DNA of 47,271 nucleotides, taken from the IMG/VR virus record IMGVR_UViG_2839594473_000016, one strand, 5' to 3'. This DNA comes from a virus (lineage: Duplodnaviria; Heunggongvirae; Uroviricota; Caudoviricetes). This document shows positions 33,001 through 36,000 of this stretch, piece after piece (the stretch's first letter is position 1; each line of letters starts with the position of its first letter). A program made the position numbers.

Positions 33001-36000
33001 TAAAACGGGCTGTGTGATTTGCTGGCGTTCCGTCAAAGTCAAATTCCCCCTGCATCCACACCACGGCAAGCAGCACATTTTTCGGGTTCTTTGCCAGCGC
33101 GGCTTTTGTACGACCGATGAGATCCTTATACAGCGGCCTGCCCACACCCCAGCGGGTAGAACTCTCTGAGGCACCGGTCACGTCACTGTATGTTCCATCT
33201 GCCCCGGTGGTGAAAGCTGAACCACCACGGCAGCACGGAACCAGAAGAATACCCGCATTCGCCGGTATAAACGGCAGCAGCTTTTTGGCAATATGCAGCC
33301 CCTGCCCCACGGTTCCGTACTGACCTTTCGACAGGTCAGCTTTCGGATGGTTAAGACGGCTCATGTCCTGTACATCATGCAGACAGTGGTCTGCCGGAAT
33401 AATGTCGTTATATTTACAGGGAGCGCCATCCGGCGTCACTGTGCTGCGACGAGCCAGTTGCTTTATACGCGGGTCAGGACGGTCATATGTCTGCGGCAGA
33501 GGAAGCCCCTCACCGTAAGCCATGCCGTTCGACTGCCCGGCCAGTGGAATAACGTAGTAATAATCTGGCTCCGTGGTGACCACTCCCGGATAGCCACCAT
33601 CCCCCGTGCCGGGCACAACCACTGGCGTGGTCACATCCCCCTCCGCGGCAATCGCCTGCATCAGGGTATAAGGGGTTATGGCCACAGGACTACCAAACGG
33701 CTGCCAGCCCTCTTTCAGTTTGTGTGTCAGCTTTTCCGCAAGATCTGACGGCGACGCCGCCCTGACAACATCATAATGTTTAATCGACATCGAATTTCTC
33801 CCGTGTACAGGAACAGAGTTAAAAAGCCGGAACCGGAATCAAATCACAGGATGACCATCTGCCAGTGGCTGGTCGTAAAAAAAAGGCCGCGCCATGCGCA
33901 GCCGGAAATAAAGGGATAACGATGATAGTTTGAGAAAAACAGAAATAACACTTTTGTGGCAAAGCATGGTGCCGGGTGCCTCCCGGTGAATTCAGTACCA
34001 GCACCTGAATCCGCGATTATCCCATATACCTGGTTGCTGATTGCCCCTCCGCACAGGGGGATTCGCCATGCAGTAGTATTTTTAATAAACAGTAAACAAA
34101 AAAATCAAGCATTATGCAGGCTGTTTCTTTTTATCACCGGCCACAGCAATACCACAATGCCGCAGACCAGCCCCCCATCCGCCAGCACCGACATGATTCT
34201 GCTGGTGAAATCCACCATCACCACCAGAAACAGCAGGAGTGCAGCCACAGCCAGACGCAGTTTTACCGTCACAGGTAATTCTCCAGACGAAGACCCAGAA
34301 CACCGGCAATCTCTTCCAGCACCTTGCGCTCTTCCGGCTCAATTTCGCCGTCTGCCTCCGCAATGGCCACCGCCACATCCAGCACATCTTCCGCTTCACG
34401 CGTATCGTGTTTCACATCCTCGATCTCACGTAACGCCGCACGACGACCAGTTTTAAAGTTCGTATCCAGCTGACCGATAATGGTTGCGCTAATCGCATTA
34501 ATTTCTGACGTAAACGCGGACAGCGCTGGCTGATTACGCAGTACCTGTTCGATCTTCGCTTTCTAGGAAGCCTCACATTCACCATCTGCACAGGCCACCA
34601 GGTATGCGGCGTTAATCACCGCCTGTGCCAGATCGCGTTTCTCAAACTTTCCTTTTTCCGGTTAACGTGACACACCAATAACTCTTGTCGAAAAAGCCAG
34701 CAAGCAGAAAGACCGGTATTCACAACCACCAGCGCGTTTACTGTACTGGCGTGATTTCAGTCATAAAAAAACCCGCCTGGCGACGGGTGTAAAAAATCTT
34801 CTAACGTCAGGCATAAAACGCCCATCGTTAGGGCAAATTTACCACAGATTCGGGAAAAATCAACAAAGCTATCTGGTCACCTTTTTCAGTTGTTGTTCTG
34901 CCCATGCTTCTTCAATATCAAACTGCACCACCAGCGTATCGTAAAAACGTTTAACTGTTTTTTTCCATGTATCAAGAGATATGGCATCGGTTACATTACA
35001 TATGGCATTAAATGCCTCCGTTGAAGGTAATCTTTCATAGCCACGACCACCACAACGCTGGCAGTCTCTGATAACAGGCATACCACGTTTTACCGACTCT
35101 TCACGATGAATGGCAACACCGCGCCCACGAAAATCTTTACAGGCGGTGGAAACCTCCCCCTTCCCTCCACACTCCGGACAGGCAACTTTTACCACCTCCC
35201 TGACTTTTTTCCATTCCTCCCAGTAAGACGGATACACGCCTTTTGTGCACTTTGCCCACACTGGCGGCTTACCATCCGGATACTGGATCTTGTTTGTAAA
35301 AACCTCGCTTTCAATAAATTTTTTTCCGTGACAACAGGGGCACTGTTTTTTGCTCGCCGCGCTACGGGCATAATCTTCAAACGCATACGAAGCCATAATA
35401 CGCATCACTGCCGGTTTTATTTCTGCCGGGAGTTTTCTTAACGCCGCCACGCGATCACACCGACTGAGTGCATATTCTGTCAGCAATTCTGTTGCCCGCT
35501 CTCTGTCATTCATACTAATGCCCATTTTCCCAAGGAACGCAGAAAACCCCATCTCAGCCCAATTCTGTGTCATGCCCTGCGCGGCCATCACATCAGTGAT
35601 ACTCAGCGTATCTTTCGACGTTGAGGCCGATGCATCAGTCAGGCCGGGGGATTTTGGGGAGTAGTATTTCGGTAAATCTTCCAGTTTCATTTTTTGACCT
35701 GCCCTTCAAGCATTATGGGGTAAATCTTCACCCCCAGACGTCCACCAGATACTGGCTGAGCACGAACGATATTGATTTCATCAAACTGCTCATCGTCCAT
35801 TAGCAACCCCGCATGCGTCAGCGCATCCAGCGGCGCTTTCAGAATATTGTCCAGGTCACGGCGGCGCTTATCCGGTGGCTCGGCAATAATCTTTATCGCC
35901 AGCCTTCCGGACAGGCTTAATTTCAGCCGCTGCTGGCGAACAATAAGCGCCACAGCCCGGCGATAACGCTCACCGGCTTTTGATACAAAATATGTGCTGC

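Follow-up and report, generated by a model that had tools for sequence, protein, structure and literature searches.

Immediately downstream of a Q antiterminator gene in the window, by which we mean the whole 47,271-nt stretch of Caudoviricetes DNA analysed here (IMG/VR record IMGVR_UViG_2839594473_000016), lies a minus-strand locus that is very likely the late-gene regulatory cassette of a lambda-family Q, comprising pR′, a Q-binding site, a sigma-dependent pause element and tR′, and belonging to prophage Sp6 (Table 1). The window DNA at the locus is 100% identical to Sp6 of E. coli O157:H7 Sakai, in which the predicted RNA occupies positions 1,554,209-1,554,273 on the plus strand; the Sp11 region of the same genome was rejected as the wrong prophage, since the two have only the terminator-downstream module in common. 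The cassette is a new, previously unannotated case of the textbook lambda-type late switch. It carries no annotation in RefSeq or in any of the phage records that contain it, ECs1524 is mentioned in no paper found, the sequence of the RNA or of the spacer is printed in none, and the term quuQ was absent among the literature matches listed.

Table 1. Elements of the probable late-gene cassette and its surroundings, in window coordinates
Feature	Position	Strand	Basis or remarks
Q antiterminator gene, 273 aa (Sakai ECs_1524)	34869..35690	-	PF03589 and lambda Q match
Q stop codon TAG	34871-34869	-	Followed by CTTTG; 5 nt before the -35 hexamer
-35 hexamer TTGATT of pR′	34858..34863	-	Invariant in close relatives
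16-nt spacer TTTCCCGAATCTGTGG, candidate Q-binding element (QBE/qut)	34842..34857	-	Conservation in subfamily
-10 hexamer TAAATT	34836..34841	-	Sequence comparison; same as lambda pR′
TTGCCC, at the position of the lambda -35-like TTGACT	34831..34836	-	4/6 match; tentative
Predicted +1 (A34829), sigma70-dependent pause element AACGAT (+1..+6) and GGG discriminator-like triplet, AACGATGGG	34821..34829	-	Identity with lambda
TATG (+15..+18), T-N-Y-G consensus match, predicted pause at about +17	34812..34815	-	Predicted from sequence
5′-terminal hairpin of predicted RNA, AACG/CGUU, inner stem GGGCGU/AUGCCU	34803..34829	-	Minimum-free-energy fold
A/U-rich single-stranded linker AGAAGAUUUUUUAC (+28..+41)	34789..34802	-	Unpaired in minimum-free-energy and centroid structures
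tR′ intrinsic terminator, stem ACCCGTC/GGCGGGT, loop GCCA, U-tract	34765..34788	-	Terminator scan, fold; hairpin 34788-34771, T-run 34771-34765, A at 34764
Second strong intrinsic terminator	33885..33903	-	8 bp, 7 G-C, T8; between tR′ and the esterase/lysis genes

Elements of the cassette and their lambda counterparts

A preliminary description of this DNA had placed a candidate promoter, TTGATT-16-TAAATT, on the minus strand just after a Q-like stop, and had compared it and a downstream hairpin with the pR′/tR′ arrangement of lambda. Both hexamers are present as described, with five bases between the stop and the -35. Agreeing with the consensus at 8 of 12 positions, they fall short of the 9 required by a promoter consensus scan, in which the site does not appear; as the window contains 216 hexamer sites of equal or better quality, the hexamers taken alone do not rise above chance level, and they were not used as evidence.

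The comparison with lambda is instead borne out by what surrounds the start site. TAAATT, the 6-nt distance from it to +1, AACGAT at +1 to +6 and the GGG that follows are all shared with lambda pR′, in which the pause element has been defined experimentally as AACGAT at +1 to +6, plus GGG (PMC4005639). The combination TAAATT-N6-AACGATGGG, which matches lambda pR′ at 15 specified bases, occurs in the window once, against a chance expectation of 0.00 in 100 shuffles with one mismatch allowed. This composite motif, the decisive feature of the locus, had been missed in the preliminary description.

Two further elements have possible counterparts in lambda. In the lambda Q-loading complex, sigma region 4 is repositioned to a -35-like site (PMC9388147); TTGCCC, found at the corresponding position, is variable and poorly conserved across the family, and its assignment is therefore tentative. 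T-N-Y-G is the consensus for the scrunched sigma-dependent pause (PMC9191641), and the TATG that matches it lies one base downstream of lambda T+14N+15Y+16G+17.

The terminator had been described as a 7-bp stem and 4-nt loop followed by U7. The stem, the loop and a run of seven T's are indeed there, but the full stem and the full U-tract do not occur together: the first of the seven T's pairs with A34788, so that the structure is either a 7-bp stem (with one G.U pair) followed by U6, or a 6-bp stem followed by U7. In the terminator scan it has 7 pairs (5 G-C) and a 4-nt loop, and its folding energy is -11.4 kcal/mol; terminators of such quality are rare in the window, where the minus strand has 7 distinct sites and the plus strand none. 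In one relative the wobble T is replaced by C, giving G-C in place of G.U, and the homologous hairpin in the SfV record is annotated as ‘putative rho-independent terminator’. The same terminator module also follows unrelated Q genes in other phages. A ‘terminator-like’ hairpin at 34835-34819, also reported by the scan, was discarded, its 5′ arm lying upstream of +1 and its stem being weak (5 bp).

Hairpin and U-tract occupy +42 to +65, which predicts an RNA of 62-65 nt with its 3′ end at about +62 to +65; the fold of the whole RNA has z = -2.7. The potential to form the AACG/CGUU pairing at the 5′ end is present in 26 of 27 family sequences, with differing loops, and one locus (L133) has the compensatory pairing AAUGA/UCAUU. 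These counts come from an analysis anchored on a conserved TT, which replaced a MAFFT alignment of +1 to +32 that had split the 3′ arm of the hairpin where loops were short. The literature searched yielded no relevant description of such a hairpin at the 5′ end of pR′ RNAs.

Conservation among Q-lambda-family loci

The order of Q gene, promoter, pause element and intrinsic terminator is kept, together with the spacing, in 29 non-redundant loci of the Q-lambda family from several genera, lending the lambda analogy additional support. The promoter is in the same register downstream of Q in all 29, and distant subfamily members have TTTACT as the -35 in that register. All nine bases of AACGAT plus GGG are retained in 23 of these loci, the other six differing at one or two of them. 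Matches at 32% identity in Bacillota, Pseudomonas and other unrelated genera were left out, with the single exception of an HK97-like locus (L115), as gene length and identity indicate that they are probably a carry-over of phage lambda DNA in the assemblies.

A terminator was detected in 26 of the 29 loci, and in 22 of these the first one would yield an RNA of 54-67 nt, although its sequence differs between subfamilies. Judged from these predictions, it is normal in the Q-lambda family for the RNA to be short, at about 65 nt, and the 194-nt RNA of lambda is the outlier.

The 16-nt spacer between the hexamers behaves differently from its surroundings. In seven loci of other genera, where Q is only 50-59% identical, 13-16 of the 16 spacer positions are preserved, while the flanks are at random level (2-5/15 upstream and 1-4/9 downstream). 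Each Q subfamily has a spacer consensus of its own, and the window spacer agrees with those of the lambda-type and SfV-type subfamilies at 5-9 of 16 positions. Since only 7 of its 16 positions agree with the Q-binding site of lambda, it is conservation that points to a role in Q binding; the qut site of lambda has the same position in the spacer (GenBank annotation of mEp235; PMC9388147). Retention of 13-16 bases where Q itself has diverged so far suggests that TTTCCCGAATCTGTGG is probably a subfamily-specific Q-binding site.

The Q gene and the probable state of the switch in Sp6

The Q-like open reading frame of the preliminary description is a true lambda-family Q antiterminator. Its 273-aa product matches Pfam PF03589, the Q-lambda family according to Yin et al. 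(PMC9388147), with an E-value of 7.8e-49 and 164 bits (cutoff 26.7), and the lambda Q structure 7UBM (/7UBN) with an E-value of 1.1e-39 in two blocks, residues 1-123 and 183-273. Residues invariant with lambda Q include G39 in the N-terminal ‘torus’ and L268 and T272 at the C-terminus. Compared with the 207-aa Q of lambda, the protein is extended by some 60 aa inserted in the zinc-ribbon ‘arm’, where there is a second CxxC...CxxC pair; it has four CxxCxGxG motifs.

The window Q is 100% identical to that of Sakai Sp6, and differs from the Q of Stx2_EH1910 solely by C187F. In the sequence alignment to lambda Q, Phe187 falls on Cys121, which ligates zinc in the arm that contacts DNA and sigma, and in 33 of 33 relatives the residue is Cys; the four-Cys zinc ribbon of the arm is thus not intact in the window copy. 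The allele is present, as an identical 61-mer, in 238 complete E. coli genomes. The substitution is probably crippling for this Q, and Q-dependent read-through in cis may fail in Sp6. With Phe at the position of lambda Cys121, the Sp6 switch probably cannot leave the terminated state without a matching Q provided in trans. C187F bears on the activity of this copy of Q, not on the identity of the cis elements.

The arrangement suggests the following course of events. Sigma70 holoenzyme would start transcription at A34829 on the minus strand, and sigma region 2 would then re-bind the -10-like AACGAT, helped by GGG, to give a scrunched pause near +16/+17. Without Q, the polymerase would escape and terminate at the +42 to +65 hairpin and U-tract, leaving a constitutive RNA of about 62-65 nt in which the A/U-rich linker joins the 5′ hairpin to that of the terminator. 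If a functional Q were bound to the spacer, it would load onto the paused complex, and the modified polymerase would read through tR′ and the second terminator (33903-33885) and on into the genes located beyond them, which code for a sialate esterase, lysis functions and then morphogenesis; in a related phage stx2 would be among the genes so reached.

Alternative readings and related systems

Could the hairpin be simply the terminator of the early-right (Q) operon, with hexamers that match by chance and initiate nothing? Its place about 80 nt after the Q stop would be a plausible one for an operon terminator, and hexamer pairs of such quality are, as mentioned above, plentiful in the window. 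Such an explanation, however, does not account for the exact TAAATT-N6-AACGATGGG motif where none is expected, for the retention of the arrangement in 29 loci with randomised surrounding DNA, or for the subfamily-specific conservation of the spacer, and we consider it highly improbable. Doubtful too, if to a lesser degree, is the proposal that the cassette is an inert relic, its promoter, pause element and terminator intact but devoid of a biological role in a defective prophage with a dead Q. The C187F substitution fits this proposal, as does the state of Sp6, which has defects in the repressor, portal, head and tail genes and whose K-12 lysogens yield no particles (PMC2669165). Nevertheless, Sp6 can still excise and be transferred (PMC2669165), and its cis elements show no decay when compared with those of Stx2_EH1910, to which they are 100% identical over 126 nt. 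Moreover, as a promoter expected to fire constitutively with no need of Q, pR′ should go on producing the short RNA.

That RNA might itself be functional as a constitutive, trans-acting and possibly Hfq-binding sRNA, with antitermination secondary or lost. Such a role is compatible with the late-switch reading that we prefer, and there is a precedent for it in StxS, the regulatory pR′-tR′ RNA of Stx1/Stx2a phages, along with the proposal that sRNAs arise generally from antiterminated promoters (PMC7547250). The predicted RNA is built like an sRNA, in that an unpaired A/U-rich linker separates its 5′ hairpin from a terminator ending in six or seven U's, and O157:H7-lineage genomes among the matches listed all have an identical cassette even though their Q is probably defective. 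Clonal descent, on the other hand, can account for this identity with no need of selection, and conservation of the linker from one subfamily to another is not strong. Searching 34764-34829 against Rfam 15 gave no family at threshold (gathering and E-value), the best overlapping hits, with E of at least 0.19, being at chance level. The Hfq-CRAC table for Sakai (Tree et al. 2014) lists no peak at 1,554,209-1,554,273, although its filter, which dropped peaks closer than 100 bp to coding sequence, would have removed any peak at this site, about 40 nt from the Q stop. On balance, we regard an sRNA function as rather unlikely. A bolder combination of these ideas, to which we give little credence, would have the O157:H7 Q inactivated by C187F and the Sp6 pR′ turned into a dedicated constitutive gene for a 65-nt trans-acting sRNA, protected by its 5′ hairpin and acting in the manner of StxS on mRNAs of the host or of a prophage. 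In a wider version of the idea, the pR′ RNAs of 54-67 nt throughout the Q-lambda family would make up an RNA family that has gone unrecognised and is more than an antitermination by-product in its function.

Among known systems, the late-switch cassette is most readily compared with lambda pR′/qut/tR′ (6S RNA), which has a PF03589 Q, the same TAAATT, 6-nt distance and AACGAT plus GGG, a downstream intrinsic terminator and the potential for a 5′ AACG/CGUU hairpin. It differs from lambda in its -35 (TTGATT instead of TTGACT), in a spacer of 16 nt instead of 17 with an unrelated sequence, in the length of the predicted RNA (about 65 nt as opposed to about 194 nt), in the longer Q and in the shift of the T-N-Y-G consensus by one position. 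Cassettes of the HK97, mEp235 and HK544 type, in which the promoter and the ‘Qut site’ are annotated in GenBank, have the same architecture, and their predicted RNA of about 58 nt (L115 type) likewise indicates that a short pR′ RNA is the usual case among Q-lambda cassettes; unlike the window, they have a lambda-type Q-binding site, TATTGAATAAAATTGGGTAAA (with 1-2 mismatches), a 207-aa Q and a different terminator sequence. The SfV/Qin QuuQ type, with a 250-aa Q, resembles the window in its four-motif zinc arm, in a region from +1 to the terminator that is about 78% homologous, and in a predicted RNA of 65 nt. Its promoter and spacer, TTGCAT-TTTTCAAAAAATATGGA-TAAGAT, are different, so that its Q-binding specificity is presumably different as well.

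More remote systems follow the same logic with other components. StxS is also a short constitutive RNA from an antiterminated late promoter of an O157:H7 prophage, but it belongs to the cassette of a 144-aa Q, is processed by RNase E from a 258-nt transcript to 74 nt, and has proven Hfq binding and targets. In the Q21 and Q82 cassettes, the Q gene similarly precedes a promoter, with a sigma-dependent pause and then a terminator, whereas the Q proteins are from unrelated families (PF06530 and PF06323), and the pause positions and the architecture of the Q-binding site are different, Q21 recognising a direct repeat as a dimer.

Because the element is of a textbook type, the existence of the cassette is unsurprising, and its practical value is in annotation and typing. 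Papers on STEC sometimes say of divergent Stx phages that they ‘lack pR′’ (PMC10562709); in one Stx2a-converting phage at least, Stx2_EH1910, an identical cassette situated about 2 kb upstream of stx2AB would control stx2. The signature formed by the -10, N6 and AACGATGGG, in conjunction with the subfamily spacer, offers a simple locator of pR′ and a means of Q/QBE typing for lambda-family Q. Natural Q variants that combine a two-zinc arm with a different conserved spacer provide material for studies of how Q-lambda-type proteins read their DNA sites, and the C187F allele predicts a silent late switch in the Sp6-type prophages of O157:H7.

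The predicted late promoter site and its likeness to lambda pR′

The segment from 33700 to 35700 (2 kb) and prophage Sp6 of E. coli O157:H7 Sakai share 100% identity; the Sp6 counterpart of Q is ECs_1524 (1,553,348-1,554,169), and the predicted +1 corresponds to Sakai position 1,554,209. Neither RefSeq nor any phage record carries a promoter or terminator annotation at the pR′-tR′ site. Matches to the 401-bp promoter region were found in 2,314 of 5,426 complete E. coli genomes, with at least 80% of its length covered in 1,409 of them.

The TTGATT-16-TAAATT candidate promoter, proposed in the preliminary description to lie a few bp past the stop of the Q-like ORF, is indeed present on the minus strand, five bases after TAG. 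Its hexamers agree with the sigma70 consensus at 8/12 positions, and the site is absent from the list returned by a promoter scan with a cut-off of 9/12 consensus positions; since 216 sites of equal or better hexamer quality were counted in the window, the two hexamers are not evidence on their own. The decisive feature, which had been overlooked, is TAAATT-N6-AACGATGGG: it occurs once in the window, with 0.00 occurrences expected (100 shuffles, one mismatch tolerated). Lambda pR′ reads TTGACT-17-TAAATT-TGACTC-AACGATGGG and thus has the -10, the 6-nt distance and the nine bases AACGATGGG in common with the window, and on this basis we place +1 at A34829.

In wild-type lambda, pausing is induced by the -10-like AACGAT spanning +1 to +6, with a discriminator-like GGG after it (Strobel and Roberts, PMC4005639). 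The lambda pause-site consensus is T+14N+15Y+16G+17 (PMC9191641), whereas the window matches T-N-Y-G one base further downstream (TATG at +15 to +18), which suggests a pause near +17. In the lambda Q-loading complex, sigma region 4 moves to a -35-like TTGACT (PMC9388147); the window has TTGCCC at the equivalent place, which agrees with it at four of six positions.

The terminator hairpin starts 41 bases downstream of A34829, with which AACGAT begins. Its 7-bp stem and 4-nt loop were described correctly, but not the combination of 7 bp with U7: because the first of the seven T's closes the stem, the terminator has either 7 bp plus U6 or 6 bp plus U7. Terminators of this quality occupy seven distinct sites in the window, all on the minus strand, where others start at 37502, 18269, 12026, 11180 and 8620. 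The one at 37502 (AACCCGCTTCGGCGGGTTTT) is similar to tR′ hairpins of other Q-lambda-family loci. The predicted 66-nt RNA has a fold of -21.3 kcal/mol (z = -2.7).

Coordinates of features in and around the promoter-terminator site
Feature	Position	Strand	Basis or remark
sok antitoxin RNA, adjoins hokD	37721-37895	minus	Rfam gathering score
Q ORF, 273 aa	35690-34869	minus	sequence
Q arm, four CxxCxGxG motifs (residues 117-217)	35040-35342	minus	
Q codon 187, TTT (Phe)	35130-35132	minus	
Q stop TAG	34871-34869	minus	sequence
TTGATT	34863-34858	minus	sequence
16-nt spacer TTTCCCGAATCTGTGG	34857-34842	minus	sequence
TAAATT	34841-34836	minus	sequence; then TGCCCT
AACGATGGG	34829-34821	minus	sequence; after TGCCCT
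5′-terminal hairpin of RNA	+1 to +27 (34803-34829)	minus	predicted fold
Unpaired A/U-rich linker	+28 to +41	minus	predicted fold
Terminator hairpin, third part of predicted RNA	after linker	minus	predicted fold
Hairpin ACCCGTC-GCCA-GGCGGGT	34788-34771	minus	T's continue to 34765
tR′ hairpin and ~140 nt, shared module	~34648-34792	minus	~90% identity
TerB-family pseudogene, internal stop	34269-34631	minus	RefSeq annotation of identical O157 genome
STnc100-family sRNA (RF02076)	33931-34097	minus	Rfam, 94 bits; ~730 nt downstream of tR′
Second strong terminator, 8 bp, T8	33903-33885	minus	after STnc100-family sRNA
EcOnc33	~31902-31949	+	extrapolated by collinearity with Sakai Sp6
ALIL pseudoknot (frameshift signal, IS3-family element)	16144-16260	minus	Rfam gathering score
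EcOnc54	~11851-11912	+	extrapolated by collinearity with Sakai Sp6
sar RNA (P22-type antisense RNA of ant)	10397-10463	+	Rfam gathering score

Family-wide layout and a candidate Q-binding element

Family loci were collected with an alignment of four Q proteins as query, taking one genome per species plus phage loci, which yielded 29 non-redundant promoter regions from Escherichia, Shigella, Enterobacter, Dryocola, Kalamiella, Chimaeribacter, Erwinia, Kosakonia, Mangrovibacter, Buttiauxella and other genera. The order -35, 16-17 nt, -10, 6-7 nt, AACGATGGG is kept in 29/29 loci, and the nine bases are complete in 23, with one or two changes in the other six. In a strict scan, 26 loci gave a first intrinsic terminator, and the predicted short RNA measures 54-67 nt in 22 of these 26; the lambda pR′ RNA, at ~194 nt, is an outlier, and its terminator was missed by the strict scan and found by eye in the sequence. 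Between Q subfamilies, the first-terminator sequences are unrelated. A 621-nt Q match at 29-32% identity, as expected of phage lambda Q, was also retrieved from contigs assigned to Bacillota, Pseudomonas, Shewanella, Bradyrhizobium and others (loci L115-L132, L145 and others), most likely as a result of lambda DNA carry-over in assemblies.

In seven loci from other genera, with Q proteins 50-59% identical to that of the window, the 16-nt spacer is identical to the window at 13-16 of 16 positions, against 2-5 of 15 immediately upstream of the -35 and 1-4 of 9 at +10 to +18. Other subfamilies have spacer consensuses of their own (lambda-type TATTGAATAAAATTGGG, SfV/QuuQ-type TTTTCAAAAAATATGGA), identical to the window at 5-9 of 16 positions. 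To our knowledge, spacer sequence is not conserved in ordinary promoters. Given this subfamily conservation, and since the lambda qut site sits in the same -35/-10 spacer (PMC9388147; a GenBank note reads 'lambda Qut site (TATTGAATAAAATTGGGTAAA)'), we read the spacer as a candidate Q-binding element of the window's Q subfamily.

In 26 of 27 family sequences, AACG at +1 to +4 can pair with a CGUU further downstream, across loops that differ in sequence and length; the partner lies 19-23 nt downstream of AACG in the window and in family loci L002-L004 and L088-L140, and locus L133 has a compensatory AAUGA/UCAUU pairing. Because the pause element already constrains AACG, CGUU is the informative side. 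The 5′-terminal stem could plausibly stabilise both the short RNA and the long late mRNA. Our literature search found no description of a 5′ hairpin in pR′ RNA.

The terminator module and small RNAs

Homology to SfV begins exactly at +1 and extends through the terminator, and the SfV record labels the homologous hairpin a 'putative rho-independent terminator'. Many Stx2 phages, 1720a-02 and PhiR5_1 carry unrelated Q genes (small in many Stx2 phages and PhiR5_1) and have in common with the window only the terminator and ~140 nt downstream, indicating that tR′ behaves as an exchangeable unit attached to different Q-pR′ modules. A recombination joint lies near 34792, where the initially transcribed region gives way to the terminator. 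Downstream of tR′ come, in order, the TerB-family pseudogene, whose counterpart in Sakai Sp11 is intact, a DUF3927 ORF and the STnc100-family sRNA; beyond the second terminator follow a 645-aa sialate esterase and then holin and lysis genes. This is the usual 'moron' plus late region, which Q-modified polymerase would transcribe. The Stx2a-converting phage Stx2_EH1910 has a promoter-terminator segment identical to the window over 126 nt, with stx2AB ~2 kb downstream.

The pR′-tR′ RNA of Stx phages, StxS, is a regulatory sRNA, and antiterminated promoters have been proposed as a general sRNA source (Sy et al. 2020, PMC7547250). A StxS-like regulatory role for the Sp6 RNA is a possible but unsupported reading. 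No Rfam family matches the predicted RNA, and of the entries in the Hfq-CRAC catalogue for Sakai, EcOnc33 and EcOnc54 alone fall in Sp6, neither of them at the pR′-tR′ site. Peaks closer than 100 bp to a coding region had been dropped from this catalogue (Tree et al. 2014), and a similar filter at first hid the Stx2a copy of StxS (PMC7547250). EcOnc33, antisense to the 3′ end of the esterase gene, is ~71 nt on a Northern blot (Tree et al. 2014); the window positions of both RNAs are extrapolated, with collinearity to Sp6 confirmed over 33362-35700 only. Table S2 of the same study places a homologue of EcOnc04, an Hfq-bound RNA of ~222 nt, at 'Ecs1525' (Sp6).

The Q protein and residue 187

The assignment of the upstream ORF to Q is borne out by its match to PF03589 (E 7.8e-49), the Q-lambda family (Yin et al. 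2022, PMC9388147), and to the lambda Q structures (7UBM/7UBN, E 1.1e-39) in blocks 1-123 and 183-273, separated by an insertion of ~60 residues. Residues of the N-terminal antitermination 'torus' of lambda Q, including G39 (PMC9388147), are invariant, as are the C-terminal L268 and T272. The CxxCxGxG motif occurs four times in the window Q (at residues 117, 171, 184 and 210) and twice in lambda Q, and the insertion probably forms a second zinc site; it is also present in most members of the family that are not of the lambda/HK97 type. The DnaJ_CXXCXGXG match of the arm is weak and falls below the Pfam cutoff (E 1.7e-5).

The Q proteins of Stx2_EH1910 and the window differ only at residue 187, Cys in the former and Phe in the latter. 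This column is Cys in all 33 other proteins of a 34-protein family alignment, and its lambda counterpart is C121, from the four-cysteine zinc ribbon of the arm. The lambda arm (residues 114-152) touches positions 11-13 of the Q-binding site as well as sigma region 4 (PMC9388147). Among 84 related loci, 80 of them from a viral-contig collection, residue 187 is Cys in 75 and Phe in eight. Of 592 complete E. coli genomes carrying the Q segment, 238 have an identical 61-mer around codon 187; among the matches listed, carriers are O157:H7 or O157-like, mostly with one copy.

Overall, the proposed reading as a Q-dependent late promoter with a short-RNA terminator is supported, with high confidence in what the elements are; initiation, pausing, termination and Q loading at the Sp6 site would be expected from homology and conservation. 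The Sp6 cassette is a new, unannotated example of a well-known kind of element; modestly new are three side results, namely a candidate Q-binding site specific to the subfamily, a 5′ hairpin conserved across the family, and the Q allele C187F. Sp6 is a defective prophage still able to excise (PMC2669165). Q(F187) is probably impaired, in which case Sp6 pR′ transcripts would end at tR′ unless a matching Q acts in trans.
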